Source: an uncultured Thermus sp.
GTDB taxonomy: Bacteria > Deinococcota > Deinococci > Deinococcales > Thermaceae
Direction: 5' to 3'
Assembly: GCA_947085095.1 (NCBI GenBank)
Contig: CAMTVD010000008.1
Span: 1 to 61,712, forward strand
DNA: 61,712 nt
A program made the translations under genes and the position numbers. Of the stretch, positions 685 to 61,525 are shown in pieces (within the stretch, counting starts at the first letter, position 1; each line of letters starts with the position of its first letter). The notes under the pieces were generated by a model. The model ran no database searches. It had not been told where the DNA came from and worked only from the letters and a program-made list of their open reading frames with translations.

Positions 685-1599
685 GGCGGCCTCCTCGGGG
701 GAGAGTTCTCCCTTGGCTACCCGGGCCACCAGGGCCTCGGCGCTTTGGGTTTTCTGGCGCCCCCACTCCTGGATGACGCTTTCCACCTCAAAGCGGGCCC
801 TTTCTAGGCGGTGGGCTTCCAGAATCCCGTGCTCCGTCAGGTGGCGGTGGTGGGCCTCGAGGCCCTCAAAAAGGGCCTCCACTCCCTCTCCCGTAGCGGC
901 CACCGTGGGGTAGATGGGGGGGCGCCAGCCCCCAGGCCGGGGAGGGGAGAGCTCCAAAGCCCCCTTGAGCTCCTGGATGAGGCGCTCCCCTCCAGGGAGG
1001 TCAAACTTGTTCACGGCGAGCACGTCGGCGATCTCCATGACCCCCGCCTTGAAGGCCTGGACCGCGTCCCCCGCCGCCGGGGTGAGGACCAGGAGGGTGG
1101 TGTCCGCTACCCGGGCGATGTCCACCTCGCTCTGGCCCACTCCCACGGTCTCCACGAAGATGCGGTCAAAGCCGAAGGCTTCCAGCAGGTTCAAGGCGGC
1201 CACCGTGGCCCCGGCAAGCCCCCCCAGGGCCCCCCTCGAGGCCAGGGAGCGGATGTAGACCCCGGGGTCTTGGTGGTGGCGCATCATGCGGATCCGGTCT
1301 CCCAGGATCGCCCCCCCGGTGAAGGGGCTGGAGGGGTCCACAGCCAGGACCCCCACCCGCTCCCCCCGCTTGCGGGCCTCCAGGATCAGGCGGTCGGTGA
1401 GGGTGCTCTTCCCCGCTCCCGGGCTTCCCGTGACCCCCACCACCTTGGCCTTCCCTTGGCCCCGCAGGCGCTTCAGGAGGGCCTGGCCCAGGGGGTGGCC
1501 GGACTCCGCCAGGGTGAGGGCCCGGGCCAGGGCGCGCACATCCCCCTGGCGGAAGCGCTCCTCTAGCTCGTGAAGTTGGGCCTCTTTTGCCTCGGTCAT
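643..1599 (-). CDS. meaB: Methylmalonyl-CoA mutase-associated GTPase MeaB/ArgK
   Basis: GSPGAGKST, AVDPSSPFTGGAILGDRIRM, ETVGVGQSE, NKFD. Confidence 0.93.
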   Translation of the reverse strand: MTEAKEAQLHELEERFRQGDVRALARALTLAESGHPLGQALLKRLRGQGKAKVVGVTGSPGAGKSTLTDRLILEARKRGERVGVLAVDPSSPFTGGAILGDRIRMMRHHQDPGVYIRSLASRGALGGLAGATVAALNLLEAFGFDRIFVETVGVGQSEVDIARVADTTLLVLTPAAGDAVQAFKAGVMEIADVLAVNKFDLPGGERLIQELKGALELSPPRPGGWRPPIYPTVAATGEGVEALFEGLEAHHRHLTEHGILEAHRLERARFEVESVIQEWGRQKTQSAEALVARVAKGELSPEEAALALLRPETQEGLS

Positions 1600-1631
1600 G
1601 CTGGCATTCTACGTTTTTTCGCAGAGGCGCG

Positions 1632-2006
1632 TTATTCCGCCAGGGCGATGCAGGCCACCTCCACCCGCACCCCCCGGGGGAGGGCCTTCACGGCCACCGT
1701 GGCCCGCGCCGGGTAGGGAGGGGCGAAGTAGCGGGCGTAGACCTCGTTGAAACCAGGGAAGTCCTCCATGTCCGCCAAAAAGCAGGTGGTCTGCACCACC
1801 TGAGCGAGCCCCGAGCCCGCGGCCTCTAGGATGGCCTTCAGGTTTTCCATGACCCGCTCTGTCTGGGCGCGGATATCCCCTTCCACCAGGGTGCCTTCGG
1901 GGGTCAGGGGGATCTGGCCGGAGACGAAGACGAAGCCCATGGCCCTGACCGCCTGGGTGTAGGGGCCGATGGCCGCAGGGGCCTTTTCCGTGCGGACGGC
2001 TTCCAT
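1632..2006 (-). CDS. ridA: RidA/YjgF family enamine deaminase
   Basis: APAAIGPYTQA, SGQIP, YPARATV, LPRGVRVEV. Confidence 0.93.
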   Translation of the reverse strand: MEAVRTEKAPAAIGPYTQAVRAMGFVFVSGQIPLTPEGTLVEGDIRAQTERVMENLKAILEAAGSGLAQVVQTTCFLADMEDFPGFNEVYARYFAPPYPARATVAVKALPRGVRVEVACIALAE

Positions 2007-2010
2007 GGCC

Positions 2011-3828
2011 TTATCCTACGCCAAAGCGGAAGAGCTTTCCCGAGAGGCTCACCACCCACACCTCCTGGGGCAGGGGCAGGGGGGGCACCTGCACCGCCCC
2101 CAGGCCCGAGGCCTCAAAGACCACCTGCCCCCTCCGGTCCACGGCCAGGAAGCGCCCCTCCTCGGTGGCCAGGAAGACGTGCCCGCTGGCGTAGCTGAGG
2201 CCCGCCGTCACCTTGCCCACCTCGAGGCTCCACACCTCCTCCCCCGTCCTTTGCTCCAGGGCCCGGAGGACCCCGTCCCAGGCGGCCACGTAGACCCTTT
2301 CCTCGTCCAGGGCCAGGCCGCCCCAGATCTCCCCCTCCAGCTCCACGTTCCAGAGGGTCTCCCGGGTCAAGGGGTCAAAGGCGTAGACCTCCCCCTCCCA
2401 GGTGGGGATGAAGAGCAGGCCCCCATAGGCGGCCACGGGAGCGTGGATGGGCCCGGTCCTGACCTTGTAGCGCAGCGCCCCGTTCCCTGGGTCCAGGGCG
2501 TAGAGCCAGCCGTCTTCCGCCCCCACGAAGAGGAGGCCCCGGTAAAAGGTGGGGCTGGCGGAAAGGTGCCCCCCTGCGGGGAAGCGGAAGAGGGGCTCAT
2601 CCTTTTCGTAGGCGTAGAGGGTCCCGTCCCGGCTGGCCACGTAAACCCTAGGGCCCAGGACCAGGGGGGCGGCGGTGACCTCGGCCCCGGTTTCCCCGCT
2701 CCACTCCAGGACCCGCCCCCGGAAGCGGCGCACCTTGCCGTCCCAAGAGCCCACGTACACCCCGCCGCGGGCCACAGGGGGCGAGGAAACCTCCTCGGGA
2801 AGGGCCTCGAGGCGCACCTCCCCCGTGAAGGGGTTCACCTCCGCCAGGTTCCGCCCCACCCCCAGGTAGACCCGCCCCCCGGCGTAGACCATCTCCCCCG
2901 GCCAGGCCGCCTCCCCTCCCAGGTCCAGCTTGGCCTTGAGGCCCAGGCGGTGGGGGTCAGGGGCCAGGGGGTAGTGGCCCGAGCGGCTGGCCCCCGCCCG
3001 GGGGGTGGCCAGGCGCAGGGCCTGGAGGTCCTGGAGGGGCCCCCGGAAGAGGGTGGGATGGGTGGGGCGCTCCTCGGGATGCTTGGCCAGGAGGCCTAGG
3101 ACCGCCTCGCTCACCCCCCTGGGTATGGCGGGGTTGAGGGCCTCCGGGGGCTTGGGCTCCTCGTAGACGTGCTGGAAGAGGATGGCTTGATCGTTCTCCC
3201 CCTCAAAGGGGGGCTTGCCGGTCAGGGTGCGGTAGAGGACGGCCCCGAAGCTGTAGAGGTCGGCCTTGGGGGAAAGGGGCAGGCCCTTGGCCTGCTCGGG
3301 GGCCATGTACAGGGGGGTGCCCAGGGTGTAGCCGGTGCGGGTGAGGTGGCGGCTTTCCTGCAGGAGGTAGGCCAGGCCGAAGTCCATGACCTTGGGGTAG
3401 CCCTCCTTGGTGAGGAGGATGTTCTTGGGGGTGAGGTCCCGGTGGAGGATGCCCTGGGCGTGGAGGTGGGCCAGGGCCTCCATGACCTGGGTTGCTGCCG
3501 TCAGGATGCGCTCGCCCTCCGGGCCCTCCTCAAAGGGGCCCAGGGCATCAAAGGTCCCCCCCTCCACCAGCTCCATGACGAAGTAGGGCCGCCCCTCCTC
3601 CTCCCCCAGGTCCAGCACCTGGACGATGCCCGGATGGAAGAGGCGGGAGAGGGCCCTGACCTCCAGGAAGAACCGCTCCCTCTCCGGGGGGAGGGCCCGG
3701 GGGTGGAGGAGCTTGACCGCCACCTTGCGCCCCAGGCGTTCGTCCACCGCCCGAAAGACCTCGGCCATCCCCCCTTCGCCCAAGGGGGCCTCGAGGCGGT
3801 ACCGTCCGCCCAGGACCACGCCCGCCAT
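2011..3828 (-). CDS. Hanks-type Ser/Thr kinase with C-terminal PQQ beta-propeller repeats
   Basis: GEGGMAEV, VAVK, HRD, DFG, GTPLYMAPE, then repeated DG.LYA.D..TG...W units. Confidence 0.93.
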   Translation of the reverse strand: MAGVVLGGRYRLEAPLGEGGMAEVFRAVDERLGRKVAVKLLHPRALPPERERFFLEVRALSRLFHPGIVQVLDLGEEEGRPYFVMELVEGGTFDALGPFEEGPEGERILTAATQVMEALAHLHAQGILHRDLTPKNILLTKEGYPKVMDFGLAYLLQESRHLTRTGYTLGTPLYMAPEQAKGLPLSPKADLYSFGAVLYRTLTGKPPFEGENDQAILFQHVYEEPKPPEALNPAIPRGVSEAVLGLLAKHPEERPTHPTLFRGPLQDLQALRLATPRAGASRSGHYPLAPDPHRLGLKAKLDLGGEAAWPGEMVYAGGRVYLGVGRNLAEVNPFTGEVRLEALPEEVSSPPVARGGVYVGSWDGKVRRFRGRVLEWSGETGAEVTAAPLVLGPRVYVASRDGTLYAYEKDEPLFRFPAGGHLSASPTFYRGLLFVGAEDGWLYALDPGNGALRYKVRTGPIHAPVAAYGGLLFIPTWEGEVYAFDPLTRETLWNVELEGEIWGGLALDEERVYVAAWDGVLRALEQRTGEEVWSLEVGKVTAGLSYASGHVFLATEEGRFLAVDRRGQVVFEASGLGAVQVPPLPLPQEVWVVSLSGKLFRFGVG

Positions 3829-4132: not shown

Positions 4133-5434
4133 ATGATGCACACAGATCCGGGGAGGGGCACCAGCAGGATTCTGCGCGTGGAGGGGGGCCTTCCCCTGTC
4201 CGGGGAGCTCCGGGTTTACCCCGCCAAGAACGCCGCCCTGCCCATCCTGGCGGCGAGCCTCCTCACCCCTGAGCCCATCACCCTTCTGGAGGTGCCCAGG
4301 CTCAGGGACGTGGAGGTGATGCTCCAACTCCTCGCCCACCTGGGCACCCGCTACGCCTGGGAGGGGCGCACCCTTCACCTCCATACCCCGGAGATCCGGA
4401 ACACCGAGGCTCCCTTTGAGCTGGTGGGGCAGATGCGGGCCAGCTTCATCGTCTGGGGGGCGCTGCTGGCCCGGGTGGGGGAGGGGACCATCCACATGCC
4501 CGGGGGATGCGCCTTCGGGGCCCGGCCCGTGGACCAGCACATCAAGGCTTTGAGGGCTCTGGGGGCTGAGGTGGAGGAGAGGGGGGATGGGGCCTTCCAC
4601 GCCCGCCGGGTCCGCCCCCTCTCGGGGCGGGTGGTCTTTGACCTGCCCACGGTGGGGGGCACGGAGCAGGCCATGCTGGCCGTGGCCCTGGGGGGTGAGG
4701 CCACCTTGGTCCAGGCGGCCATGGAGCCGGAGATTGAGGACCTGGGCCATTTCCTCGGCATGCTGGGGGTGGAGGTCCGGGGCCTGGGGAGCGCCATCCT
4801 GCACGTGAAGGGGGCGGAGCGCCTCAAGGGGGGAAGCTACCGCATCATCCCCGACCGCATTGAGGCGGGCACCTACCTCCTGGCGGCGGCGGCCACCCGC
4901 GGGGCCATCACCCTTACCCATGTCCGCCCTGACCACGTGGATGCCCTTCTGGACAAGCTTGGCCAGGCGGGGCACCGGGTGGAGACGGGGAGGGACTGGG
5001 TGCGCCTCACTGCCACCCCCCATCCCGAGCCCTTCCACGTGGAGGCCCGGGAGTACCCCGGCTTTCCCACCGATCTCCAGCCCATCGTCACCGCCTATTT
5101 GGCCACGGTGCCCGGGCAGAGCGCCGTTACGGACCGCGTCTACCCCGACCGCTTCACCCACGTGGGGGAGCTGGCCCGCATGGGGGCCGAGCTCTACCTC
5201 CGGGACCGCACCCTCTTGGTGAACGGCAGGCGCCTGCACGGGGCCCAGGTGAAGGCCCTGGACATCCGGGCTGGGGGCGGGTTGGTGGTGGCGGCCCTGG
5301 CGGCGGAGGGGGCTTCGGAGATTGAGGGGGTTTACTTCCTGGAGCGGGGGTATGAGGACCTCGAGGCCCGCCTCCAGGCCCTGGGGGCGAGCGTGAGGCT
5401 GGAGGAGGCCCCCTTGGCCGTGGCGGCGGACTGA
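4133..5434 (+). CDS. murA: UDP-N-acetylglucosamine 1-carboxyvinyltransferase
   Basis: KNAALP, MRAS, PGGCAFGARPVDQH, PDRIEAGT, PGFPTD. Start moved downstream of the promoter. Confidence 0.96.
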   Translation: MMHTDPGRGTSRILRVEGGLPLSGELRVYPAKNAALPILAASLLTPEPITLLEVPRLRDVEVMLQLLAHLGTRYAWEGRTLHLHTPEIRNTEAPFELVGQMRASFIVWGALLARVGEGTIHMPGGCAFGARPVDQHIKALRALGAEVEERGDGAFHARRVRPLSGRVVFDLPTVGGTEQAMLAVALGGEATLVQAAMEPEIEDLGHFLGMLGVEVRGLGSAILHVKGAERLKGGSYRIIPDRIEAGTYLLAAAATRGAITLTHVRPDHVDALLDKLGQAGHRVETGRDWVRLTATPHPEPFHVEAREYPGFPTDLQPIVTAYLATVPGQSAVTDRVYPDRFTHVGELARMGAELYLRDRTLLVNGRRLHGAQVKALDIRAGGGLVVAALAAEGASEIEGVYFLERGYEDLEARLQALGASVRLEEAPLAVAAD

Positions 5435-5571: not shown

Positions 5572-6012
5572 TTAAAGCTGCAGCGCCTCGGGAAAGCGGA
5601 AGAAGAGGCGGTCCCGCACCAGCTCGGGGCTGTACCCCTTTTCCACGTAGCCTGCCCCCCTTAGGGCCTCCAGGACCTCCATGGCCACCTGCCGGTCCCC
5701 CCCCAGCCTGGCGGTGAGGAAGACCAGGGCCTCCTCCTCCTCGTCCCCTTCCCCCACGAACTCGGGGTACTCCTGGTCCAGGGCCCGCATCAGGGCCTTC
5801 AGGTCCACGGGGCGGCTGGTGAAGGCGAAGCGGGGGCTCTCCCCGGGCAGGAAGTGGGCGTACCCCTGGGCCTCGAGGGCCCGGGCCAGCTCCACGGCCT
5901 CCTGGTGGGTGTGGCCCCTCTGTTGCAACAGGGTCACCAGGGCATCGCGTTCCCCTTTCAGGCCGTTGGGGTGCTCCTCCCGTAGGCTGTTGGCCAGCTT
6001 CTCCAGTTCCAT
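5572..6012 (-). CDS. Hypothetical protein with two similar helical halves
   Basis: Thermus-like codon usage. TTGCGC-17-TATGAT promoter ends 9 nt before ATG 6012. Confidence 0.75.
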   Translation of the reverse strand: MELEKLANSLREEHPNGLKGERDALVTLLQQRGHTHQEAVELARALEAQGYAHFLPGESPRFAFTSRPVDLKALMRALDQEYPEFVGEGDEEEEALVFLTARLGGDRQVAMEVLEALRGAGYVEKGYSPELVRDRLFFRFPEALQL

Positions 6013-8233: not shown

Positions 8234-9475
8234 TCAGTCTAGGGGAAGGCTGACCCCAAAGACGTTCTCCTCGCCCTCGCGCTTGGCGTAGGCCTCCCCC
8301 CCCAGGGCTCTGGCCAGGCGGCGCACCAGGTAGAGGCCGAGCCCCTGGCCAAACCCCTCCTGGGTCCCCCGCCTTCCCGGGAGGAAGAGGTTTTCGTAGT
8401 CGGTGAGGGCCTCCCCCCGGTCCCGGACCTCCAGGTGGAGCCTTGAGCCCTCGGCGTGGGAAAGGACACGGATGGGGTCCTGGCCGTACTTGAGGGCGTT
8501 CTCCAGGAGGTTCAGGAGGATCTGGAAGAGGGCCTCGAGGTCGGTGATGAGGGTGTGGGGGAGCTGGACCTCCACCCTTCTCCCCTTCAGCCTCTCCCCC
8601 AGGAGCTTCTCCAGGCGGGTCCAGACCTCCTCCAGTTCCACGGGGCGCCTGGGGCCGGGCTGTATGGGGGAAAGGCCCTGCACCAGGCGGGAAAGCCGGG
8701 CCACCTCCGCCTTGAGGAGGTCCAGGACTTCCTTTTCCTGCTTGGTCCTGGGGGTGAGGGCCTCCAGCAGGGGCCCCATGCCGGAGAGGGGGGTGCGGAG
8801 CTCGTGGCCCACCTCGGCCAGGAAGGCCCGCTCCCGCTCCTTGGCCTCCCTGAGGGCCTTGAGAAGGGCGTTCACCGCTTCCACCATGCGGCCAAACTCG
8901 TCCTGGGAGAGGGAGAGGGGGATGGGGTCCAGGCGCTCCGGGCTCCTTCCGGCGATCTCCCGGGCGGCCCGTTCCAGGGGCCTGGTGGCCAGGCGGGCGG
9001 TGAGGTAGACGAGGAGGGTCCCCAAGGGGAAGAGGAGGAAGAAGGCCTGGAGGAGGGCCTGCCTTAGGGCTGATAGGGCCCTTTGGATGGGCTCGGCCTC
9101 GGCGGTGAGGGCGAGGAGGCCCAAGGGGGTGCGGACCGCGATCCAGGCGAAGCCCTCCGCCCAAAGGACCCTGGGGGTATCCCCCAGCGTTTTGAGGGCC
9201 TCCCTGGGGAGGCGGTGGTCCTCCCGGGTGAGGACCAGGGGCTCCCCCTCCCCTGTGTAGAGGTGGAGGTGGACCCCGCCGGTGGTGAGGAGGGTGCCCG
9301 CCTGGCCCTTCCGGTAGGCCTCCGCCGCCCTCTGGGCGTCCTGGAGGAGGGTGGCCTCGAGGTGGCCCCGGAGGGCGGCTTCCACCCCCCGCCCCGCCAG
9401 GTACAGGACCCCGCCCAGGAAGAGGAGCCAGAGGAGGCTGAAGGCCAGGAAAAGACGGGTGCGGAAGGGGAGCAC
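8234..9475 (-). CDS. Membrane sensor histidine kinase (2 TM, HAMP, HisKA, HATPase)
   Basis: HELRTPL H-box, NLLENALKY N-box, GQGLGL G2 box. Confidence 0.92.
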   Translation of the reverse strand: MLPFRTRLFLAFSLLWLLFLGGVLYLAGRGVEAALRGHLEATLLQDAQRAAEAYRKGQAGTLLTTGGVHLHLYTGEGEPLVLTREDHRLPREALKTLGDTPRVLWAEGFAWIAVRTPLGLLALTAEAEPIQRALSALRQALLQAFFLLFPLGTLLVYLTARLATRPLERAAREIAGRSPERLDPIPLSLSQDEFGRMVEAVNALLKALREAKERERAFLAEVGHELRTPLSGMGPLLEALTPRTKQEKEVLDLLKAEVARLSRLVQGLSPIQPGPRRPVELEEVWTRLEKLLGERLKGRRVEVQLPHTLITDLEALFQILLNLLENALKYGQDPIRVLSHAEGSRLHLEVRDRGEALTDYENLFLPGRRGTQEGFGQGLGLYLVRRLARALGGEAYAKREGEENVFGVSLPLD

Positions 9476-11232: not shown

Positions 11233-11841
11233 TTAGCGCCCGTCCCCCCGGCTTTGCGCCAGGGCCTTCAGGCCCTTTAGGTCCTTGAGGAGGATCTTAC
11301 CGTATCCCGAGCGGATGTAGCCCTCCCGGGCGAGCTCCCCGATCACCTTGGTCACGGTTTCCCGCACGCTCCCCACGGCGGCGGCCAGCTCGTCGTGGGT
11401 GGCGTGGAGGACCAGGATGCCCTCCTCCTCCTGGGCCAAGGGAGTTTCCGCCAGTTCCAGAAGGGCCGCCGCCATGCGGTTCTTGAGGCGCTGGGTGGCC
11501 ATGCGCTCAATGCGGCGGTAGGACTCGGAGAGGGCCTGGGCCAGGTGCTGGGCCAGCGCCTTGAGCTCCTCGGGGGAGGGTTCCTTGGGCAGGGTTTCCA
11601 GGACCACCTCCGTCACCGCCTCGGCGAAGTAGCCCCGCTCGGCCCCGAAGAGGGCCTCCTCCCCGAAGTAGCCCCCGGGGCGGACCAGGCGCAGGGTGAG
11701 GGCGTTCCCCTCCTCGTCCACGGCCTCGAGGCGGACGAGGCCGGAAAGCACCCTAAAGGCCCGGTCCCGGGGCCCAAGGGGCCCCGGGTAGAGGATGACC
11801 TCGCCGGGCTTGAAGCTCTGGGTTTCGCGGGCCTGGGTCAT
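11233..11841 (-). CDS. sdrP: CRP/FNR-family regulator SdrP
   Basis: FGEEAL and HDELAAAVGSVRETVTK HTH. 202 aa, very similar to Thermus SdrP as I recall it. Confidence 0.85.
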   Translation of the reverse strand: MTQARETQSFKPGEVILYPGPLGPRDRAFRVLSGLVRLEAVDEEGNALTLRLVRPGGYFGEEALFGAERGYFAEAVTEVVLETLPKEPSPEELKALAQHLAQALSESYRRIERMATQRLKNRMAAALLELAETPLAQEEEGILVLHATHDELAAAVGSVRETVTKVIGELAREGYIRSGYGKILLKDLKGLKALAQSRGDGR

Positions 11842-12533: not shown

Positions 12534-14950
12534 CACTTTTCCTCCTCCACCACGAAGGCGCTGGCGATCTCGTCGTCCTCGGGCAGGTTCATGACCTTGA
12601 CCCCCGCCGTGGCCCGGGAGTACTGGCGGATCTGGGAAACGGGGGTGCGGAGGGCAAGGCCCCGCCTGGAGAGGACCAGGAGGTCCTCCTCCCCCCGCAC
12701 CTTGAGGAGGGCGGCCAGGCGGCCCACCCTGGCGGAGACGGCGTAGGTGATGACCCCCATCCCTCCCCGGCCCTTTAGGGGGTACTCGGCGAGGGGGGTG
12801 CGCTTGCCGTAGCCCCGGGTGCTCACCGAGAGGAGGTCCACCATCTCCCCGGGGCTCACCGTCACCAGGGAGACGACCCGGTCCTCGGGCCTCTTGAAGC
12901 GGATGCCCACCACCCCCTGGGTGTCCCGGCCCGTGGCCCGCACCTCCTCCAGGGGGAAGCGGATGGCCTGGCCCTCCTCTGTGGCCAGGATGGCCTCGTC
13001 CTCGGGGTGGGAGAGGGCCACGCCCACCAGGCGGTCCCCCTCCTGGAGCCGGATGGCGATCAGGCCCCCGGCCCCCAGGTTGGCGTACTCCCGGAGGGCG
13101 GTGCGCTTGATGAGGCCCTTTTCCGTGGCGAAGACCAGGTACCCCTCCCCCTCGAGGCCCCGCACAGAGAGGAGGGCGGCCACCTCCTCCTCCTCCGAGA
13201 GGGGGAGGAGGGTCTTCACGTGCACCCCCCGGGCCTGGCGGCCCATCTCCGGGAGCTCGTAGACCTTGAGGCGGTAGACCCGGCCCCGGTTGGTAAAGAC
13301 GAGGAGGTCGTCGTGGGCGTCGGCCACGAAGACCCCTATGGCCTCGTCCTCCTCCTTGGTCTTGCCCGCCAGAAGGCCCTTCCCGCCCCGCCCTTGGGCC
13401 CGGTAGGTCTCCAGGGGAAGGCGCTTGAGGAAGCCCTGGGCGGTGAGGGTGATGACCATGGGCTCGTCCTCAATGAGGTCCTCGGGGTTGAAGCTCTCCT
13501 CAAACTCGGTGAGGAGGGTGCGCCTCCCGTCCCCGTACTTCTCCTTGACCCGGAGGAGGTCCCGCTTGACCTCTCCCCAAAGGCGGGCCTCATCCTCCAG
13601 GATGGCCTTCAGGCGGGCGATCTCCTCCATGAGCTCACGGTACTCCGCCAAAAGCTTCTCCCTTTCCAGGGCCACCAGGCGCTGCAGGCGCATGTCCAGG
13701 ATGGCCTGGGCCTGGGCCTCGGTGAGGCCGAAGCGCTCCATGAGGCCCCGCCTGGCGGCGGGGGCGTCCTCGGAGGCCCGGATCAGGGCGATGACCTCGT
13801 CAATGTGGTCCAGGGCGATGAGGAGGCCCTCGAGGATGTGGGCCCTCTCCTCCGCCTTCTTCAGGTCAAAGAGGCTCCGGCGCCGCACCACCTCCTTGCG
13901 GTGGTCCAGGTAGTGGCGCATGAGGGCGAGGAGGGGGAGGACCTTGGGCTCCCCGTGGACGATGGCCAGGAGGTTCACGGTGAAGGAGGTCTGCAGGGCG
14001 GTGTGCTTGTAGAGCTGGTTCAGGACCACCTGGGGGTTGGCCCCCCGCTTGAGCTCAATGGCGATCCTGAGGCCCTGGCGGTCGGACTCGTCGCGGAGGG
14101 CCACGATGTCCTCGATCTTCTTGGCCTTGACCAGGGCGGCGATCTGGGCGATGAGGCCCGCCTTGTTCACCTGGTAGGGGATCTCGGTGACCACCAGCAT
14201 GGGCCTCTGCCCCTTTTCCTCTACGCGCACCTTGGCCCTGAGCTTCAGGCTTCCCCGCCCCGTGGCGTAGGCCTCCTTGATGCCCTTTTTGGAAAGCTTC
14301 CCCCCCGTGGGGAAGTCGGGACCCGGGAGGTGGCGCATGACCTCCTCGAGGGTGATCCCCGGGTTGTCAATCATGGCCACCAGGGCGTCCACCACCTCGG
14401 AGAGGTTGTGGGGGGGGAGGCTGGTGGCCATGCCCACGGCGATGCCGCTGGCGCCGTTCACCAGGAGGTTGGGGATGGCGGAGGGGAGGACCTCGGGCTC
14501 CTGGAGAGAGCCGTCGTAGTTGGGGCGGAAGGCCACCGTCTCCTTGTCAATGTCCAGGAGCATCTCCGCCCCCATGGCCGAGAGCCTGGCCTCGGTGTAG
14601 CGCTGGGCGGCGGGAGGGTCCCCGTCAATGGAGCCGAAGTTCCCCTGGCCGTCCACCAGGGGGTAGCGCAGGTTCCAGGGCTGGGCCAGGCGGGCCAGGG
14701 CGTCGTAGATGGCCGCGTCCCCATGGGGGTGGTACTTGCCCATGACCTCGCCCACGACCTTGGCGCTCTTCACGTGCTTGCGGCCCGGGAGGACCCCCTC
14801 CTGGTGGGCGGCGAAGAGGATGCGCCTCTGGACCGGCTTCAGCCCGTCCCGAACGTCCGGGAGGGCCCGGTCCACGATCACGGACATGGCGTAGTTGATG
14901 AAGCTTTGCTTGAGCTCCTCGGTGATTTCTACAGGTAAGACCTGGGCCAT
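12533..14950 (-). CDS. gyrA: DNA gyrase subunit A
   Basis: [26 protein letters not shown], GyrA-box QGRGGKG. Confidence 0.98.
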
Positions 14951-15028: not shown

Positions 15029-15454
15029 CTAAAGAAGTGGGGTGGCCTCGAGGGCCTCCCAGGCCGCCTCCAGGTAGGCCTCCTCCGCCACCTCTTCCCC
15101 CCAGTAGGCGGTCTTGCCCTCCCCGTCGGCCTTCTGCAGGGCCAGGTGGGCCATGAAGCGGTCCGGAAGGGCCCCATGCCAGTGCTCCTCCCCAGGGGCG
15201 AAGACCACCACGTCCCCGGGGAGGAGGAGCCTGGCCCCCTCCCCCCGGCTTTGCGCCAGACCTACCCCTTCCGCCACGTAGAGCACCTGGCCGTGGGGGT
15301 GGGTGTGCCAGGCTGTGCGGCCTTGGGGAGCGAAGCGCACCAGGAAGAGGCTTTCACCCTGGGGTTGGGCCGGAACTAAGACCTCCAGGTACACCTTTCC
15401 CGAGAACCACTCGGGATTGCCTTCTGCGGTCTTGTGAAAACGGTGGATCTCCAT
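15029..15454 (-). CDS. Cupin domain protein
   Basis: TAWHTHPHGQ and PGEEHWHGA cupin motifs. Confidence 0.88.
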   Translation of the reverse strand: MEIHRFHKTAEGNPEWFSGKVYLEVLVPAQPQGESLFLVRFAPQGRTAWHTHPHGQVLYVAEGVGLAQSRGEGARLLLPGDVVVFAPGEEHWHGALPDRFMAHLALQKADGEGKTAYWGEEVAEEAYLEAAWEALEATPLL

Positions 15455-18145: not shown

Positions 18146-18799
18146 GTGATTCGCATACTGCTAGCGGACGACCACGCCCTCTTCCGGCAGGGGCTGAAAA
18201 GCCTTTTGGAGGCCGAAGGGGATTTCCGGGTGGTGGGGGAGGCCAAGGACGGCTGGGAGGCTTTGCGGCACGCCCTCGAGGCCAAGCCCGATGTGGTCCT
18301 CATGGACATCCAGATGCCGGGCCTGGACGGGGTCCAGGCCACCCAGGCCATCCTCAAGGAGTGGCCCGGGGCCAGGGTCATCATCCTCACCATGTACCGC
18401 CAGGACGCCTACGTCTTTGAGGCGGTCAAGGCGGGGGCCAGGGGGTATCTGCTGAAGGACACGGACGCCCGGGAACTGATAGAGGCCATCCGCCGGGTCC
18501 ACGGGGGGGAGGTCCTTTTGGACGCCGAGCTGGCCGGGCGCATCATCCAGGACTTCCGGGCCAGGAAGGAGCAAAGCGCCCCCCTGCACGCCGAGCTCTC
18601 CGAGCGGGAGATCCAGATCCTCAAGCTGGTGGCCCAGGGGTACACCAACCTGGAGATCGCCGCCGAGCTCCAGCTTTCCGAGAAGACGGTGCGCAACCGC
18701 CTTTCCGAGATCTTCCAGAAGCTCCACTTAAATAACCGCACCCAGGCGGCCCTCTATGCCATCCGGGAGGGGCTGGCGGAGCCCGACCTGGAAGAGTAG
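18146..18799 (+). CDS. NarL/LuxR-family response regulator (no adjacent kinase)
   Basis: [33 protein letters not shown]. Confidence 0.94.
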
Positions 18800-48327: not shown

Positions 48328-50472
48328 TTATGCCCTCCGCCCAAGCCCCGTCAAGCCCCTCTTGAGGAAGAAGGGCAGGCCCAGGAGGAAGCCCAGGAGG
48401 TTTAGGGAGGCCTGGGGAATGAAGAGGAGGAGGGCGATGAGGCCCAGGGCCCAGCTTTCGGGGCGGCTTAGGGGCCTCCGGGTGTAGCCAGCGGTGGAGG
48501 CGGAGAGGTAGATGATGCCCACGGCCACGGAGAGGAAGCGCTCCAGGATGATGGGCCAGGCCTTATCGGGGGGCAGGGTCTCCAGAACCGGCAGGATGAG
48601 GAGGCCCGTGCCCGTGTAGGTGAGGAGGAAGAAGAAGCCGATCAGGTACTTGGAAAGGGCTACCCGGGCGGCGTAAACCCCGGTGGGTATGGGGTGGGTG
48701 CCGAAGACGCTGGCGGCGGCGTAACCGGAGAGGGCCACAGGGGGGGTCACGTCCGCCAGGACGGCGTAGTAGAAGAGGAACATGTGGGTGGCGTAGACCG
48801 CGGCGATCTGGGCCATCTTGGGGTCCAGGCCGTAGGCGGTGAAGTTCTCCGCGGCCAGGGCGATGATGGCGGGGGCGGTGAGGGCTGAGGTGAGGACGTA
48901 GGTGGCCGTGGGGGGGACCCCCATGCCCAGAACCAGGCTGAAGAGGGCGGTGATCAGGGTGGCGAGGAGGAGGCTCTCCCCCGAGATCTGTTGCAGAAGC
49001 TGGCTGAACTTGGAGGGCAGGCCGGAGATGACCATCATGGAGAAGATGAGGTTGGCGGAGGTCACCGCGGTGCCGATGGGCAGGAGGGAGCGGAAGCCCT
49101 CCTCGAGGCCCCGGAAGATGGGCCCGATCCCCTGGGGCCTCAGGGTGGGGTCCAGGTAGGCCAGGAGGATGAAGCCCAACAGGGCCAGGCTGGCGGCGGT
49201 GCGCACCTCGTAGCCCAGGTAGAGGAGGACCACGATGAGGAGGATGGGCAGGAAGATGGGGCTGTAGCGGAGGACGTACCGCCTGCGCCCCAGGCCGATC
49301 TCCGCCGCCACCGCGGGCAGGCCTGCCTTGCGGGCGTAGAACTCGTTGAAGGCCATGATGGAGAGGAGGTAGAGGAGGGCCGGCCCGATGGCCATGGCCA
49401 TCACCTTGAGGTAGGGGATTTCCAAGATCTCCACCATGATGAAGGCGATGCTTCCCATGATGGGGGGCATGATGAGGGCGATGGTGCCGGCGGTGGCGGC
49501 GATGCCGGCGGCGGTGAGGCGGTCATACCCGGCCCGCTCGTAAAGGGGCTTGGTGAGGGTGGAGACGAACTGGGTGTCCGCGGCCCCCGAGCCCGAGAAC
49601 ATCCCCATGAAGGTGCCCGCCAGCCCCGTGACCCGGCCGGGGGTGGCGGGGCTTTTCCCCACCAGGGCCAGGGCCATGTTGGCCACCACCCGCCCCAGGC
49701 CCAAGGCGGTGATCATCCCGGAAAGGAGGGTGAAGTAGACCAGGTACTTGGCGGAAACCCCGGTGATGAGGCCGTAGATGCCCGCCTCGGTCTCGTTGAA
49801 GCTCTTGCCCAGGAGGAGGTCCACGGGCTGGGGGGCTCCGCGGAAGGGTCCGGGGAAGAGCTGGGCGTGGAGGTTGTAGCTGAAGAAGAAGAGGACGAGG
49901 ACCGGCATCACTGGCCCCAGGAGTCGGTAGACCACCCCCAGGAGGAGGAGGATGAGGGTGAGGCTCATCCCCGCGTCCCAGGCCTCGGGGATCACCGCCC
50001 GGTAGACCAGCTCCTCAAAGTAGCGGGCCTGGTACCAGGTGGGCAGGAGGGAGAGGAGGGCCCCCAGGAGGGCGGTGGGGCGCTGGAGCCTGGGGACCAC
50101 CGCCGGGAGGACGGCCACGGCCCAGACCAGGAGGCCGAAGAGGCGGACCTCGAGGGGCAGGTCCATGGCGGGGGGTTTGGGAAAAAGGAAGCTGTAAAGG
50201 GGCACCAGGCTGAAGGCCAGGAAGACCCAGGAGCCCAAAGTGGCCTTCCTGGGGGGGGCGAAGAAGCTCACCAGGTAGGCTCCCAGGAGGAGGAAGAGGA
50301 CGTGGGTGCTCCGCTGGAGCTGGACGATGTCCAGGAGGATGATCTCCGCCTTGGCCAGGGGGGTGAAGGGGTGGAGGACGAGGTATAGGCTAAAGAGAGC
50401 TCCCAGGATCAGGACCAGGCGGGTAAGCCGTCCCAAGGGGCTTGGGGGAAGGGTCGCGTGGATCTCCGCCAT
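48328..50472 (-). CDS. TRAP transporter fused 4TM/12TM permease
   Basis: MPPIMG, LGMGVP.TA.Y, HMFLFYY, TPPVAL. Confidence 0.92.
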   Translation of the reverse strand: MAEIHATLPPSPLGRLTRLVLILGALFSLYLVLHPFTPLAKAEIILLDIVQLQRSTHVLFLLLGAYLVSFFAPPRKATLGSWVFLAFSLVPLYSFLFPKPPAMDLPLEVRLFGLLVWAVAVLPAVVPRLQRPTALLGALLSLLPTWYQARYFEELVYRAVIPEAWDAGMSLTLILLLLGVVYRLLGPVMPVLVLFFFSYNLHAQLFPGPFRGAPQPVDLLLGKSFNETEAGIYGLITGVSAKYLVYFTLLSGMITALGLGRVVANMALALVGKSPATPGRVTGLAGTFMGMFSGSGAADTQFVSTLTKPLYERAGYDRLTAAGIAATAGTIALIMPPIMGSIAFIMVEILEIPYLKVMAMAIGPALLYLLSIMAFNEFYARKAGLPAVAAEIGLGRRRYVLRYSPIFLPILLIVVLLYLGYEVRTAASLALLGFILLAYLDPTLRPQGIGPIFRGLEEGFRSLLPIGTAVTSANLIFSMMVISGLPSKFSQLLQQISGESLLLATLITALFSLVLGMGVPPTATYVLTSALTAPAIIALAAENFTAYGLDPKMAQIAAVYATHMFLFYYAVLADVTPPVALSGYAAASVFGTHPIPTGVYAARVALSKYLIGFFFLLTYTGTGLLILPVLETLPPDKAWPIILERFLSVAVGIIYLSASTAGYTRRPLSRPESWALGLIALLLFIPQASLNLLGFLLGLPFFLKRGLTGLGRRA

Positions 50473-51560: not shown

Positions 51561-52664
51561 CTATGAGGTTTTGTCAAGGGAGGATAGCCCTAGAAGCCGC
51601 ACCTGGAAGGCCCTTAGAAGGTCGGTCTTGCTGAGGATGCCCAGGAGGACCCCCCCCTCCACCACCAAGGCCCGGGCATAGCCCCGCTCCCCCATGCGCT
51701 CTAGGGCGCTTAGGGCGGAGTCCTCCGGGGAGAGGACCAGGGGCTCTTGCAAATAGCGGCCCACGGGGGCCAGAGGGTCGGCCCCCTCCAGGCCCTCGAG
51801 GCCCACCACCCCCAAAACCCGCCCCTCCTCCACCACGGGGAAGCCGGAGACCCGGTGGGCTAGGGAAAGCTCCAGGAGTTCCGCCACGGGAAGGTCCTTG
51901 GGAACCACTATGGGATCTCGGGTCATGAGGTCCTTCACCTTCAGGCCCTCCAGGGCCTGGGCCAGGAGGGTGGCCTCGGCATCGGCCCTCGAGGCCATGT
52001 AGACGAAGAAGGCCATGAGGATAAGGAAGGGGTTCAGGGCCCAGAGGCCGAAGAGCCCCAAGGCGAAGGCCACCGCCTGGCTCAAGGCCAGGGCCTGCCG
52101 GGTGGCCTGGAGGTAGGGCTTCCTGGTGGCCAAGAGGGCCCGGTAGACCCGCCCCCCGTCCAGGGGCAGGGCGGGGAGGAGGTTGAAGAGGCCCAGCATG
52201 AGGTTCACCAGGGCCAGGTAGTGGGTGAGGAAGCCCAAAGCCCCCGTCTCCTGGCGCAGGAGCCGGAAGAGGAGGGCCAGGGCGAAGCTCACCAAGGGCC
52301 CGGCGAGGGCGATGAAGAGCTCCTTTTTGGGCTCCCTGGGGATCCTTTCCAGCTGCGCCACCCCGCCCAAAAGCCAGAGGGTGATCCGCTGGGTGCGGAT
52401 TCCTAGGCGCTGGGCGGCCAGGGCGTGGCCCAGTTCGTGGAGGAGCACGGAGAGGAAGAGGCCTAGGGCGGCCACAAGGCCCAGGAGGAAGGGCCAGGGG
52501 CCCTGGAGGAGGCCAGGGTCCTGGGGCAGGCCAAAGAGTTCCAGGTAAAGGGGCAGGTTGCCGCCGATGAGGAGGGCGAGAAGGGGAAGGACCAGGAGAA
52601 AGGTCAGGTCCAGGTGCAGGGGGATGCCCAGGAGGCGAAAGAGGGGAAGGCCGCGCTGGAGCAT
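51561..52664 (-). CDS. Site-2 (M50) protease with CBS domains
   Basis: HELGH, AGP, FNLLPALPLDGG, C-terminal CBS pair. Confidence 0.93.
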   Translation of the reverse strand: MLQRGLPLFRLLGIPLHLDLTFLLVLPLLALLIGGNLPLYLELFGLPQDPGLLQGPWPFLLGLVAALGLFLSVLLHELGHALAAQRLGIRTQRITLWLLGGVAQLERIPREPKKELFIALAGPLVSFALALLFRLLRQETGALGFLTHYLALVNLMLGLFNLLPALPLDGGRVYRALLATRKPYLQATRQALALSQAVAFALGLFGLWALNPFLILMAFFVYMASRADAEATLLAQALEGLKVKDLMTRDPIVVPKDLPVAELLELSLAHRVSGFPVVEEGRVLGVVGLEGLEGADPLAPVGRYLQEPLVLSPEDSALSALERMGERGYARALVVEGGVLLGILSKTDLLRAFQVRLLGLSSLDKTS

Positions 52665-56893: not shown

Positions 56894-57736
56894 CTAACAC
56901 GCCTTCCCCCTCCTGGGAAAGCAGTCTTGGAAGAAGGCGAGGGCCTTGGGGAGCTTCTCCTTTAGGGCCTCCGGGAACTCCTCGGGCCTTTTGGTGCGGA
57001 ACCAGTGGAGGTCGTGGAGGTAGGTGAGGGGCACGTAAAAGGCCAAGCGCTCCCGCACCTCTTTGGGATAGAGGCGGGCTAGGCGGAATAGGGCTTCCCG
57101 AGCCCTTTCCTCCCCCAAGAGGTCCAGGCTTCCCGTCTTGAGCAGGGCCAGGTCCCGGGCCGGGTCGTCCCCCCCGGCGCGCACCCAGTCCACCAAGATG
57201 ACCTCCAGGCCCTCCGCCCCGGGCTCCTTGAGGAGAAGGTTCCCCGCCCAGGCGTCCCGGTGGCAGAAGCGCCTTGCTACCCCGGCGGCCAGGTCCACTT
57301 CCCGTTTGAGGGCCTCGAGGAGGGCCCGGGCCTCGAGGACCGCCCCCAAGCTCTCGCAGAAGGACTCCAATCTTTCCAGAAGCTCCTCCCGGCCCACCTC
57401 CCCGGGCTCGGGCAGGCGGTGGAGGGAGAGGAAGAGGTGGGAGAGGGCGGGGAGGGTCTTGGCGGTGAAGCCCTCGGGGGAGAAGGGCCTCCCGGGGAAG
57501 CGCCGGGTCACCAGAACCCCCTGGCCCTCCGCCTCCACCACCCCCAGGACCAGGTCCCCTAGGCCAGCCCGGGCCATGCGCTTGGCCTCCAGGGCCGCCA
57601 GGTGGGCCTCCTCCCGCTTGTAGACCTTGTAAACCCTTTCCCCGTCGGTGTAGACCCGGGCCTCAAACCCCCCTAAGGGGGTGAGGCGGGCGAAGCCTTC
57701 CTGAGGAAGGAGGCCCTTGAGGGCGGCCACGGCCAC
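56894..57736 (-). CDS. APH/choline kinase-family phosphotransferase
   Basis: CHRDAWAGN Brenner motif, VDW, DPARDLA. Leaderless GTG 57736. Confidence 0.85.
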
Positions 57737-57754: not shown

Positions 57755-58828
57755 GTGGAGCTTCTCCGCCTCGAGGCCACGGTCCTTTCCCTGGGGGAAA
57801 GGGTCCTCTCCTTTGACCGGGAGGGGCGGCCCTACCACTACTTCCGCCAGGGGCTCACCTACAAGCGGGCTTTGGACGGAAGCCTCCACCTTCGCTTTCG
57901 GGAGGGGGAGAGAAAGAGGCGGAGGCTCGCCAAGGAGGAGGCCCTGGCCCTTTACCAAGAGGTCCTGGACCTGGCCCGGCTCCACCTGAGGGACGAGGCG
58001 AGGCGCAGGGAGGTCCTGCGGTGGACCCCGGAGGCCCTCCTGGACCCCAGCCCTTACCGGCGGGCCTATGCCTGGCCCATCAGCATCCTGCCTCCCGACG
58101 CCTACCTCTCCGTGGTCCTCCAGGCCACCACGGGCTGTACCTGGAACCGCTGCGCCTTCTGCTCCTTCTACCAGGACCGCCCCTTCCAAAGGCGGAGCGA
58201 GGGGGAGTTCCGGGAGCACGTGGAGGCCGTTTTGGACCTCCTGGGACGGGGGCGGCTCCTCAGGCGCGGGGTCTTCCTGGGAGACGGGAACGCCCTGGCC
58301 CTTTCCGAGCCCCTCCTGCCCCTTCTTGAGGAGGTGCAAAGGCGTTTCCCGGGGGAGCCCGTCTTGGGCTTTCTGGACCTTTTCACCGGCCTTAAGAAGG
58401 AGGCCTCTTGGTGGGCCAGGCTCCGCACCTTGGGCCTTAGGCGGGTCTACATCGGCTTGGAAACGGGGCATCCTCCCCTTCTGGCCCTCCTCAACAAGCC
58501 GGGTCATCCCAGGGAGGCCATTTCCCTGGTGGAGGTTTTGAAACGGGCGGGGCTTTCCCTGGGGGTCATCCTCCTGGTGGGGGCGGGGGGGAGGGTTTAC
58601 CGGGAAGCCCACCTGAGGGAGAGCCTGGCCCTCCTCTCCCAGCTCCCCCTGGACAAGGGGGATATCGTCTACCTCTCCCCCTTCCAGGAGACCCCGGGCA
58701 CCCCCTACGCCGCCTTGGGCTTGGAGCCCATCCCCGAGCTGGAGGTGGAGGTATCCACCTGGGCGGAAAAAGTGCGGGGCATGGGCCTGAGGGCGGCCCG
58801 GTACGATATCCGGGAGTTTCTCTACTGA
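57755..58828 (+). CDS. Radical SAM protein of unknown function
   Basis: CTWNRCAFC (CxxxCxxC), FLGDGNAL, YIGLETG. Confidence 0.9.
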   Translation: MELLRLEATVLSLGERVLSFDREGRPYHYFRQGLTYKRALDGSLHLRFREGERKRRRLAKEEALALYQEVLDLARLHLRDEARRREVLRWTPEALLDPSPYRRAYAWPISILPPDAYLSVVLQATTGCTWNRCAFCSFYQDRPFQRRSEGEFREHVEAVLDLLGRGRLLRRGVFLGDGNALALSEPLLPLLEEVQRRFPGEPVLGFLDLFTGLKKEASWWARLRTLGLRRVYIGLETGHPPLLALLNKPGHPREAISLVEVLKRAGLSLGVILLVGAGGRVYREAHLRESLALLSQLPLDKGDIVYLSPFQETPGTPYAALGLEPIPELEVEVSTWAEKVRGMGLRAARYDIREFLY

Positions 58829-59101: not shown

Positions 59102-59106
59102 AGACC

Positions 59107-60669: not shown

Positions 60670-60678
60670 GGTGGCCTG

Positions 60679-60728
60679 AGCCTAAAGGAAAGGGGCGGGG
60701 TTTGTCAATAAGCAGAACGATTTTTCGT
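60679..60728 (-). promoter_or_regulatory. aceB promoter and candidate IclR operator
   Basis: TTGACA-18-TAGGCT. Palindrome ACGA-N4-TCGT at 60717-60728 in an AT-rich spacer. Confidence 0.55.
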
Positions 60729-60766
60729 ATGTTGAAAAATAAACCAGGCCGTGCTACCTTGGGGCC

Positions 60767-61525
60767 ATGCCCAGGCCCAGGGAAAAGGGTGCCGAAGGGG
60801 TGAGGACCCTGGAGCGGGGGCTTCAGGTCCTCGAGGCCCTAGCCAGCCTGGGGGAGGCGGGGCTGGGGGGGCTCGCCCGGGCCACGGGGTTTTCCAAGAG
60901 CACCCTCTACCGCCTCCTCCAGACCCTGGCCCACAGGGGGTTCGTGGAGGAGGGGGAAGGGGTCTACCGGGTGGGCCCCCGGGCCTTCGCCGTGGGCCAG
61001 GCCTACCCCAAGCGGAACCTCCTGCAGGCGGCGCGGCCGGAGATGGAGGCCCTGGCCGAGGAGCTGGGGGAGAGCGTGAACCTGGCGGTGATGGCGGGCC
61101 TCGAGGCCCTCTACCTGGACCAGGTGGAGGGGAAGAAGCTGGTCCGCCTCTTCACCGCCCCCGGGAGCCGCGCCCCCCTCCACGCCACGGGGGTGGGGAA
61201 GGTCCTCCTGGCCTACCGGGGGGTGCCCGAGGGGCTTCTCCTGGAGGCCTACACCCCCCATACCCTCACCTGCCGGGAGGCCCTTCTAGAGGAGCTGAAG
61301 CGGGTTCGGGCCCAGGGCTACGCCCTGGACAACGAGGAGAAGGAGCTGGGGGTGCGGTGCGTGGCCGCCCCCGTCTTCGGCCCCGGGGGGGAGGTGGTGG
61401 CGGCCCTCTCCCTCTCCGCCCCCGCAAGCCGCCTCTCCCCCGAGGAGGCCCACCGCCTGGCGCCTAAGGTGGTGGCGGCTGCCCAAAAAGCTTCCTTGCG
61501 CCTTGGCTTCACAGGGTCTGTATAA
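60767..61525 (+). CDS. iclR: IclR-family transcriptional regulator
   Basis: KSTLYRLL HTH, PLHATGVGK, GYALD.EE...GVRCVAAP. Divergent from aceB. Confidence 0.92.
   Translation: MPRPREKGAEGVRTLERGLQVLEALASLGEAGLGGLARATGFSKSTLYRLLQTLAHRGFVEEGEGVYRVGPRAFAVGQAYPKRNLLQAARPEMEALAEELGESVNLAVMAGLEALYLDQVEGKKLVRLFTAPGSRAPLHATGVGKVLLAYRGVPEGLLLEAYTPHTLTCREALLEELKRVRAQGYALDNEEKELGVRCVAAPVFGPGGEVVAALSLSAPASRLSPEEAHRLAPKVVAAAQKASLRLGFTGSV

Follow-up and report, generated by a model that had tools for sequence, protein, structure and literature searches.

Genomes that avoid their own palindromic restriction site usually show a few-fold depletion of it. Word counts can also be moulded by repair, as in E. coli, where Dcm/Vsr very-short-patch repair shapes the frequencies of CCWGG and CTAG; the Dam methyltransferase is an example of an enzyme with a flanking-sequence preference. 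Avoidance of the site of a resident Type II restriction-modification (R-M) system was reportedly described by Gelfand and Koonin in 1997, Rocha et al. in 2001 and Rusinov et al. in 2015. For the iterated cyanobacterial octamer HIP1 (GCGATCGC), passages of Elhai (2015; PMC4390886) give an observed-to-expected ratio (O/E) of 55-228 in most cyanobacteria outside Group C1. Passages of Blow et al. (2016; PMC4752239) describe a Nocardia orphan methyltransferase for CTCGAG whose sites cluster at the origin, and flank preferences of about 100-fold are given for bacterial C5-methyltransferases in PMC11879396. Here we analyze the palindromic octamer CCTCGAGG, which is built around the TaqI site TCGA, in a 61,712-nucleotide stretch from an uncultured Thermus species (contig CAMTVD010000008.1, G000:C8:1-61712; hereafter the window), in the assembly to which it belongs (2,076,267 bases, 41 contigs, 67.5% GC, 93% complete; hereafter the own genome) and in related genomes.

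The pattern is own-site avoidance of a Type II R-M system, unusually deep and genus-wide, with a sharp context exemption. We are highly confident of a purge of TCGA from which CCTCGAGG is exempt. Such a purge would leave the octamer behind as a remainder that was neither inserted nor amplified: selection against the cutting of own or incoming DNA would strip TCGA by silent codon changes, while TCGA inside the palindrome, and best of all inside GGCCTCGAGGCC, would be free of cost, so that CTC-GAG would stay there near its un-purged frequency. The gene content of the window is that of an ordinary chromosomal region (e.g. gyrA, mutS, mutL, glnA).

Depletion of TCGA and the spared context

The window holds 43 copies of CCTCGAGG (Table 1); in 100 dinucleotide shuffles the mean was 4.85 and the largest count 10, none of the 100 reaching 43. 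TCGA itself has 46 occurrences, fewer than the shuffle mean of 133.6 and matched or exceeded in 100 of 100 shuffles. All but three of these TCGA (43/46) sit within the octamer, the exceptions being at 14112 (CCTCGATC), 34845 (CTTCGATG) and 46233 (CCTCGAGT). An original prediction, made from the letters of the window by eye, had estimated about 40 octamers and about three TCGA in other contexts. Both estimates held: the 43 copies include those at the coordinates it had named, and the other TCGA are exactly three, at the same positions.

The whole genome contains 1576 octamers, 1932 TCGA and 1726 CTCGAG. Markov models of orders 1-3 predict 153-170 octamers, and CCTCGAGG is the top palindromic octamer of the genome, the runner-up counting 812. 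TCGA outside it is reduced to 0.17/kb, its most abundant contexts being GCTCGAGG (56) and CCTCGAGC (52). The octamers are not clustered, their spacing having a coefficient of variation of 0.81 and close pairs being fewer than under a Poisson process. Some shorter palindromes also deviate from second-order expectation in this genome (CGCG 0.41, CTAG 0.44, AATT 0.56, TATA 1.88).

A null model that respects coding was obtained from 30 within-gene shuffles of synonymous codons in 1796 called genes, with proteins and codon usage preserved. Outside CCTCGAGG, the called genes hold 261 TCGA against about 7690 in the shuffles (0.034x), and CTCGAG counts 1542 against a shuffle mean of 2477. The purge is about 30-fold deep overall and as much as 250-fold in individual codon pairs: NTC|GAN pairs have O/E of 0.004-0.12 (CTC|GAC, 4 vs 1114 expected; GTC|GAG, 6 vs 1031), with the exception of CTC|GAG at 0.58. 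Ahead of a GAN codon, Ile is written ATC in 4.5% of cases (90% elsewhere), Phe TTC in 1.5% (81% elsewhere) and Val GTC in 0.2% (34% elsewhere). The near-total TCGA avoidance noticed by eye is therefore real and extreme, and these codon choices bear out the dodging of the word by codon pairs. The octamer numbers 1414 copies in called genes against 818 ± 23 after shuffling. The expectation of 2-3 copies for the window in the original prediction was a base-composition figure, and under the codon-preserving null the excess is 1.7-fold, not about 15-fold.

Codon usage and amino-acid composition alone have next to no probability as the explanation. The surviving octamers are so numerous because Leu-Glu pairs abound (7767) and both CTC and GAG are favored codons. 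However, total TCGA in called genes is 1675 against 8507 ± 54 when the same proteins are shuffled, and relatives of like composition use CTC-GAG regardless of flanks.

What is spared depends on both flanks. Most coding copies of CCTCGAGG (1357/1414, 96%) read xxC CTC GAG Gxx and thus encode Leu-Glu, and CTC-GAG spells 1357 of the 3315 Leu-Glu pairs that lie between C and G (41%), compared with 0-5% for every other flank pair. The C and G flanks thus go beyond what Leu-Glu coding explains, as had been proposed. Among contexts of the general form NNNNTCGANNNN, O/E is 1.70 for CCTCGAGG, 0.125 for CCTCGAGC, 0.15 for ACTCGAGG, 0.03 for TCTCGAGG and 0.0-0.08 for the remaining ones listed, so that avoidance is not uniform across TCGA occurrences. 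The half site CCTCGACC has an O/E of 0.005. A half-site model, in which a strand methylase would be specific for GAGG- or CCTC-, was rejected because half sites of this type are depleted like any other context. A trade-off with CCWGG avoidance in the alternative spelling CCTGGAGG was likewise rejected, since CTG-GAG is freely used there (41% within C..G flanks). In both other reading frames the octamer survives as well (15 vs 0.5 and 42 vs 6.5 expected), which indicates that the exemption acts on the DNA word and not on the codon pair.

The spared context extends beyond eight bases and is graded across 12, with GGCCTCGAGGCC as its best form. Within C..G flanks, the share of CTC-GAG depends on the next codon (GCC 0.67, GAG 0.14, GAA 0.05), the previous codon mirrors this pattern (GGC 0.68, TCC 0.09), and between GGC and GCC it reaches 59 of 65. 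In G031, an un-purged relative, the same flank-codon table ranges only over 0.47-0.83. Relative to G031, half-flank densities at the DNA level fall from 1.46 (CC) to 0.14 (CA).

Baseline frequency and turnover of the octamer

Five sister-family genomes without TCGA avoidance carry 5.8-9.05 non-octamer TCGA per kb and use CTC-GAG in 59 of 97 Leu-Glu pairs flanked by C and G and in 182 of 327 pairs with other flanks. G034 and G029, which hardly use CTC-GAG (0/5 and 1/15; 0/2 and 1/22), were excluded from this baseline. In 400 kb of G031, one of the five (68.4% GC), there are 6.9 TCGA per kb, and 69% of C,G-flanked Leu-Glu pairs are written CTC-GAG. The density of CCTCGAGG is 0.76/kb in the own genome and 0.88-0.89/kb in G031, a ratio of 0.86: the octamer stands at or slightly under the un-purged baseline and is not enriched.

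Copies outside called genes behave in the same way. There are 163 of them, 78 within uncalled Leu-Glu-frame open reading frames, and the outside/inside density ratio is 0.74, with comparable codon-derived words spanning 0.61-1.03; an excess of the octamer outside genes was therefore rejected. To follow turnover, 32-41 window genes were codon-aligned with seven relatives. Octamer sites were identical in 89 of 172 comparisons, the synonymous control CCTGGAGG in 49 of 99 (Fisher p 0.80), and CTC-GAG and CTG-GAG interchange freely within C..G flanks, as expected of a neutral word. Where the flank had changed and Leu-Glu was kept, CTC-GAG persisted in only 1 of 25 cases, compared with 6 of 9 for the control (p 0.0004). 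Although individual sites are unconserved, several lineages actively enforce the rule on flanks.

These results bear on the interpretation first offered for the window, namely a HIP1-like iterated palindrome kept up by methylation-coupled repair, or else a signal for uptake, recombination or strand discrimination, which we now find very improbable. Its attractions are the rank of CCTCGAGG among palindromic octamers (1576 vs 812), its construction round the methylation site of a methyltransferase found throughout the genus, its 1.7x excess over the codon-preserving null and its one-base deviants, mostly at outer positions as passages of PMC4390886 describe for HIP1. However, other GC-rich palindromes (GGAGCTCC, CCCCGGGG, CCAGCTGG) lie equally at 1.6-1.9x their codon null, the density does not exceed that of an un-purged relative, and the outside/inside ratio lies within the range of comparable words. 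The reading-frame independence and between-species conservation that had been proposed as checks both turned out against it, with 96% of coding copies in a single frame and turnover equal to the synonymous control. C5-methyltransferase (PF00145) and Vsr (PF03852) each gave 0 matches in the own genome (93% complete), and a model of C5-methylation with Vsr repair was rejected on that account. A palindrome is moreover unable to mark a strand. As for uptake or recombination, there is no excess over the un-purged relative or outside genes, and the enrichment above coding and intergenic levels that goes with a DNA uptake signal of the DUS (DNA uptake sequence) or USS (uptake signal sequence) type was not found. 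To our knowledge, DNA uptake in Thermus is reported to lack sequence specificity.

Table 1. Octamers and other surviving TCGA sites of the window; the sign after gene coordinates is the strand
Feature	Positions	Frame or context	Gene
CCTCGAGG	855..862	Leu-Glu frame, context GGCCTCGAGGCC	MeaB-like, 646-1599-
CCTCGAGG	1234..1241	frame xCC TCG AGG	646-1599-
CCTCGAGG	2220..2227	Leu-Glu frame	protein kinase, 2014-3828-
CCTCGAGG	2805..2812	Leu-Glu frame	protein kinase, 2014-3828-
CCTCGAGG	3789..3796	Leu-Glu frame	protein kinase, 2014-3828-
CCTCGAGG	5359..5366	Leu-Glu frame	EPSP synthase, 4064-5431+
CCTCGAGG	5871..5878	Leu-Glu frame	5575-6030-
CCTCGAGG	8533..8540	Leu-Glu frame	histidine kinase, 8237-9475-
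CCTCGAGG	9355..9362	Leu-Glu frame	histidine kinase, 8237-9475-
CCTCGAGG	11724..11731	Leu-Glu frame	Crp-like, 11236-11841-
CCTCGAGG	13150..13157	Leu-Glu frame	gyrA, 12536-14950-
CCTCGAGG	13828..13835	Leu-Glu frame	gyrA, 12536-14950-
TCGA survivor, CCTCGATC	14110..14117	outside spared context	gyrA
CCTCGAGG	14344..14351	Leu-Glu frame	gyrA, 12536-14950-
CCTCGAGG	15046..15053	Leu-Glu frame	cupin, 15032-15454-
CCTCGAGG	17416..17423	Leu-Glu frame	16886-18103-
CCTCGAGG	18274..18281	Leu-Glu frame	18146-18796+
CCTCGAGG	21299..21306	Leu-Glu frame	ABC transporter, 20661-22397+
CCTCGAGG	22331..22338	Leu-Glu frame	ABC transporter, 20661-22397+
CCTCGAGG	24367..24374	Leu-Glu frame	24203-25384+
CCTCGAGG	24691..24698	Leu-Glu frame	24203-25384+
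CCTCGAGG	26330..26337	Leu-Glu frame	25347-26387-
CCTCGAGG	27216..27223		outside called genes
CCTCGAGG	28213..28220	Leu-Glu frame	27443-28360-
CCTCGAGG	31451..31458	Leu-Glu frame	30690-31466-
CCTCGAGG	34444..34451	Leu-Glu frame	33830-35005-
TCGA survivor, CTTCGATG	34843..34850	outside spared context	
CCTCGAGG	35283..35290	Leu-Glu frame	glnA, 35143-36480-
CCTCGAGG	36793..36800	Leu-Glu frame	36671-38326+
CCTCGAGG	38077..38084	Leu-Glu frame	36671-38326+
CCTCGAGG	39914..39921	Leu-Glu frame	39603-40823-
CCTCGAGG	42469..42476	Leu-Glu frame	mutS, 41000-43432+
CCTCGAGG	43306..43313	Leu-Glu frame	mutS, 41000-43432+
CCTCGAGG	43360..43367	Leu-Glu frame	mutS, 41000-43432+
CCTCGAGG	43965..43972	Leu-Glu frame	mutL, 43432-45048+
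TCGA survivor, CCTCGAGT	46231..46238	outer-base variant	
CCTCGAGG	46843..46850	Leu-Glu frame	45704-46903+
CCTCGAGG	49101..49108	Leu-Glu frame	48331-50472-
CCTCGAGG	50148..50155	Leu-Glu frame	48331-50472-
CCTCGAGG	51794..51801	Leu-Glu frame	51564-52664-
CCTCGAGG	51987..51994	frame xCC TCG AGG	51564-52664-
CCTCGAGG	57313..57320	18 bases to next copy; GGCC on left	outside called genes
CCTCGAGG	57331..57338	GGCC on left	outside called genes
CCTCGAGG	57769..57776	Leu-Glu frame	57755-58825+
CCTCGAGG	60829..60836	Leu-Glu frame	IclR, 60767-61522+
CCTCGAGG	61099..61106	Leu-Glu frame, context GGCCTCGAGGCC	IclR, 60767-61522+

TaqI genes and the agent of the exemption

Relatives were surveyed through whole-genome counts of CCTCGAGG and CTCGAG and through samples of 11-27 kb each, drawn from one or two places per genome (25.6-27.1 kb except in G014 and G002). 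The ratio of CCTCGAGG to CTCGAG is 0.73-0.92 in the 32 genomes of the genus, 0.54 and 0.61 in the two genomes of sister genus g15, 0.50 in the single, 69%-complete genome of sister genus g13, and 0.10-0.32 across g11, g12 and g14 (33 genomes). The purge is thus present in all 32 genus genomes and, more weakly, in the 3 genomes of two small sister genera. As had been suggested from the window, the pattern tracks the TaqI methyltransferase gene: an M.TaqI orthologue occurs in every genome of the genus (32/32) and of g15 (2/2) and in none (0/34) from the four other genera of the family; of these 34, 33 are un-purged and the remaining one is the incomplete G048. By this distribution, genomes in which the word is prominent have its cognate methyltransferase, as in the HIP case.

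The endonuclease R.TaqI (PF09573) occurs in 9 of 31 genus relatives and in 0 of 36 genomes of other family genera; it was not found in the own genome, in a search that matched a Thermus thermophilus control genome. TCGA outside CCTCGAGG amounts to 0-0.22/kb in 7 sampled genomes with R.TaqI, 0.15-1.37/kb in 17 sampled relatives without it and 1.95-9.05/kb in sampled other genera; the 7-kb locus sampled in the own genome has 0.14/kb. The purge is strongest where R.TaqI is present.

In the other family genera (G041-G074) we also noticed that GAGCTC is 2-43x rarer than CTCGAG, at least about 3.5-fold in all but three genomes (278 vs 12078 in G057), and that GGAGCTCC has only 9-139 copies. The scarcity of GAGCTC may be a separate restriction-site avoidance, because Glu-Leu should match Leu-Glu in abundance.

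The taqIM gene of the own genome (C14:250703-251926) encodes 408 amino acids with the NPPY motif kept. It matches the TaqI_C recognition domain PF12950 (E 1.1e-14) and, over residues 6-405, the solved M.TaqI structure PDB 2ibs (E 1.8e-170); judged by these matches its product is a member of the M.TaqI family (gamma-class N6-adenine methyltransferases). In 25/25 genomes examined taqIM lies directly downstream of kbl, and taqIR, where present, adjoins taqIM on the side of gyrB (order gyrB-(taqIR)-taqIM-kbl). At the own locus no R gene follows taqIM and a convergent gene abuts, making it an orphan methyltransferase. Beside it, C14:242958-250718 encodes a Schlafen/AlbA_2 + HATPase_c_4 protein, a 933-amino-acid DUF1156 methylase-like protein and a HEPN_Swt1 + DUF499 ATPase; since relatives have gyrB there, the segment looks like an inserted defense island. 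On the metagenome contig L173, a TaqI R-M pair close to that of G020 adjoins about 3.8 kb of lower-GC DNA without kbl (locus of 10.7 kb, 56% GC, 26 TCGA), which may represent a TaqI system in a different, possibly mobile, setting.

Two allele classes of the methyltransferase were distinguished over 25 genomes, 7 further genus genomes of the family search being left unclassed. They form two clades of the M.TaqI tree, separated by a long branch (0.37, support 100/100): clade A comprises all 7 R-linked genes and 2 orphans, clade B 16 orphans including that of the own genome. The own class B protein is 59-65% identical to nine class A proteins and 65-68% identical to the long-branch class B pair of G002 and G005, with 85-94% identity for the neighboring kbl product. 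Fixed A/B differences are concentrated just behind NPPY, a 4-residue deletion among them, and in residues 308-324 and 337-338 of the reference; fixed changes of class B also affect the recognition domain. The G+C content at third codon positions (GC3) of taqIM is 0.82-0.90 in class B and 0.70-0.80 in class A, and 0.62 in the sole called R gene (G020). Allele class mostly follows the mutS-mutL tree, although on that tree the closest neighbor of the own genome and G018, both class B, is G020, which is class A and has R. The orphan allele of G023 is almost identical to those of G011 and G010, though the mutS-mutL tree separates them, which suggests transfer between species.

These alleles could themselves be the source of the exemption, if the ancient orphan class B allele had an extended specificity centered on CCTCGAGG and the gene pool kept TCGA only where both alleles methylate, so that DNA moving between orphan-allele and R.TaqI backgrounds would survive only once other TCGA were gone. 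Two clades on a fully supported long branch, protein identity far under that of kbl, the fixed differences near NPPY and in the two later residue blocks, and alleles that move between species (G020 against the own genome; G023 with G011 and G010) would fit this account. It is nevertheless rather improbable: the exemption and the extended flank landscape are shared by class A genomes that carry R.TaqI, no difference in that landscape having been seen between class A and class B genomes; allele class largely tracks the species tree, so that cycling is not shown; the selection invoked is second-order; and specificity is not readable from the sequence of the allele. We give equally little credence to a related proposal, in which the roughly 1,500 surviving octamers would be the true in vivo targets of an orphan class B enzyme with 8-12 bp specificity, and would bear an epigenetic mark shared across the genus and serving some function in the cell. 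Loss of all other TCGA would in that case keep both the mark and the immunity to visiting TaqI systems unambiguous, and the octamer would be a thermophile counterpart of HIP1 with its orphan methyltransferases, made by subtraction and not by amplification.

The main rival is that some other protector, reading the palindrome over its full 8-12 bp, shields CCTCGAGG from R.TaqI, with the other TCGA relying on M.TaqI alone and being purged. Candidates would be a second methyltransferase, acting on the same adenine or on the CpG cytosine, or an abundant DNA-binding protein. The requirement for both palindrome halves and the CTCGAG core, with outer variants partly tolerated, is what one protein reading the whole site would produce, and the own genome holds several other methyltransferases, including a beta-class enzyme at C18:77390-78298 and a D12-class enzyme at C35:62630-63478. 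Further R-M-type genes lie at C35:4840-5784, C36:106-1863, C13:86767-91095 and C41:6774-8390; they comprise a beta-class methyltransferase that, at 53% GC, is probably a recent acquisition, an N6_N4 methyltransferase carrying a fused Mrr-type nuclease domain, a 1443-amino-acid Eco57I/MmeI-like fused enzyme and a Type I HsdM. However, no family that was searched for proved universal, with PF02384 and PF07669 left out of the genus-wide survey and binders other than methyltransferases not searched for. A universal second methyltransferase was rejected for PF01555, PF02086 and PF00145, all sporadic in the genus: the PF01555 type of about 300 amino acids was not seen in the complete, R.TaqI-bearing G003, PF02086 matched 17/31 genus relatives at E <= 0.001, several genomes with R.TaqI giving a weak match or none, and PF00145 was present in 2/24 genomes. 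A search for an XhoI-family endonuclease found none, though it had no positive control. As the 12-bp grading also resembles a kinetic preference more than a discrete site, we regard a separate protector as unlikely.

We favor an agent within the TaqI pair because the M.TaqI orthologue alone, among the families searched, spans the whole genus. The exemption may come from flank-dependent kinetics, either because R.TaqI cuts (GG)CCTCGAGG(CC) poorly or because M.TaqI methylates it fastest, so that it would never be exposed. Such kinetics would be consistent with the grading over 12 bases, the identical landscape in classes A and B and the flank preferences reported for C5-methyltransferases. We advance this agent tentatively, as a possibility somewhat short of even, and the complete statement, in which purge and exemption are joined to TaqI kinetics, has our guarded preference at little better than even.

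Two high-GC phages of Thermus mirror the host, with 4/4 TCGA of IN93 and 2/3 of P23-77 within CCTCGAGG. P23-45 (57% GC; 29 TCGA vs 105) and phiYS40 (33% GC; 29 vs 70) are moderately depleted over 50 kb each, and phiYS40 has no octamer in its 50 kb. In P23-45 (L126, bases 1-50000), 5/29 TCGA are GCTCGAGG, which is also the commonest near-miss context in the host.

Several points weigh against our interpretation. M.TaqI and R.TaqI serve in the laboratory as plain TCGA enzymes, and our literature search found no biochemical datum on TaqI flank dependence. A half site gives zero protection, where a simple per-strand methylation-rate model predicts otherwise. The purge persists in the 16 orphan-only class B genomes despite far-diverged synonymous sites (codon identity to relatives 0.60-0.77), and R.TaqI was not found in class B species among the metagenome matches listed; these include at least 8 Thermus-like R.TaqI loci, all with class A alleles and in backgrounds best matching class A genomes. 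The lytic phage P23-45 has 0 CCTCGAGG among its 29 TCGA in 50 kb. Finally, the related genomes are not independent samples, and gene calls come from our own crude GC3-based caller. No publication dealing with CCTCGAGG, or with TCGA avoidance in Thermus that depends on context, came up in our literature search, where the sole co-mention was a PCR primer. The passages seen of the T. aquaticus methylome (PMC5587805) report TaqII and TaqIII motifs, with nothing in them on TCGA contexts.

Comparison with known systems

Restriction-site avoidance is usually seen as mild and uniform; here it is 30- to 250-fold, with a sharp palindromic exception of 8-12 bp. This exception amounts to a natural selection experiment, which shows which TCGA contexts are harmless in cells living with TaqI. 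If the kinetic explanation is true, the genome predicts that flanks have a strong and hitherto unreported effect on two enzymes in practical use: R.TaqI, applied to genotyping and induced genome restructuring, and M.TaqI, applied to optical mapping and to DNA labeling. If instead a second modification or a changed orphan specificity is responsible, an unknown epigenetic component would be present in a model thermophile. The case further illustrates that a striking iterated palindrome can arise by subtraction alone, which calls for caution in motif hunting.

The octamer resembles HIP1, as passages of PMC4390886 portray it, in being a GC-rich octameric palindrome found about once per kb round a methyltransferase site, with deviants at the first or last base and a methyltransferase present wherever the word is prominent. 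Unlike HIP1, whose excess in those passages is tens- to hundreds-fold, CCTCGAGG stands at 1.7 against the codon null and 0.86 against an un-purged relative; it is frame-locked to Leu-Glu and not conserved beyond control, and its inner 4-mer TCGA is purged elsewhere rather than merely methylated. Dcm/Vsr also moulds word frequencies through a methylation-linked process, but needs a C5-methyltransferase and Vsr, neither of which was found in the own genome. Like other orphan methyltransferases, the own taqIM is an intact, syntenic and long-lived relative of an R-M methyltransferase, although CCTCGAGG is not clustered in non-coding control regions and no regulatory role is indicated. The flank preferences of methyltransferases and restriction enzymes are, in PMC11879396, graded, roughly palindromic and up to about 100-fold, as would be the case here; the preference proposed for TaqI is, by comparison, deduced from what the genome kept.

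The closest likeness is to own-site avoidance itself. A 4-base R-M target is lost by silent codon changes, and the loss, measured against a codon-aware null, tracks the cognate genes in the lineage and is deepest where the endonuclease is present. Unlike the described cases, the depletion in Thermus is far deeper (O/E 0.004-0.05 in most contexts), persists in species that have only an orphan methyltransferase, and fully exempts a single context of 8-12 bp.

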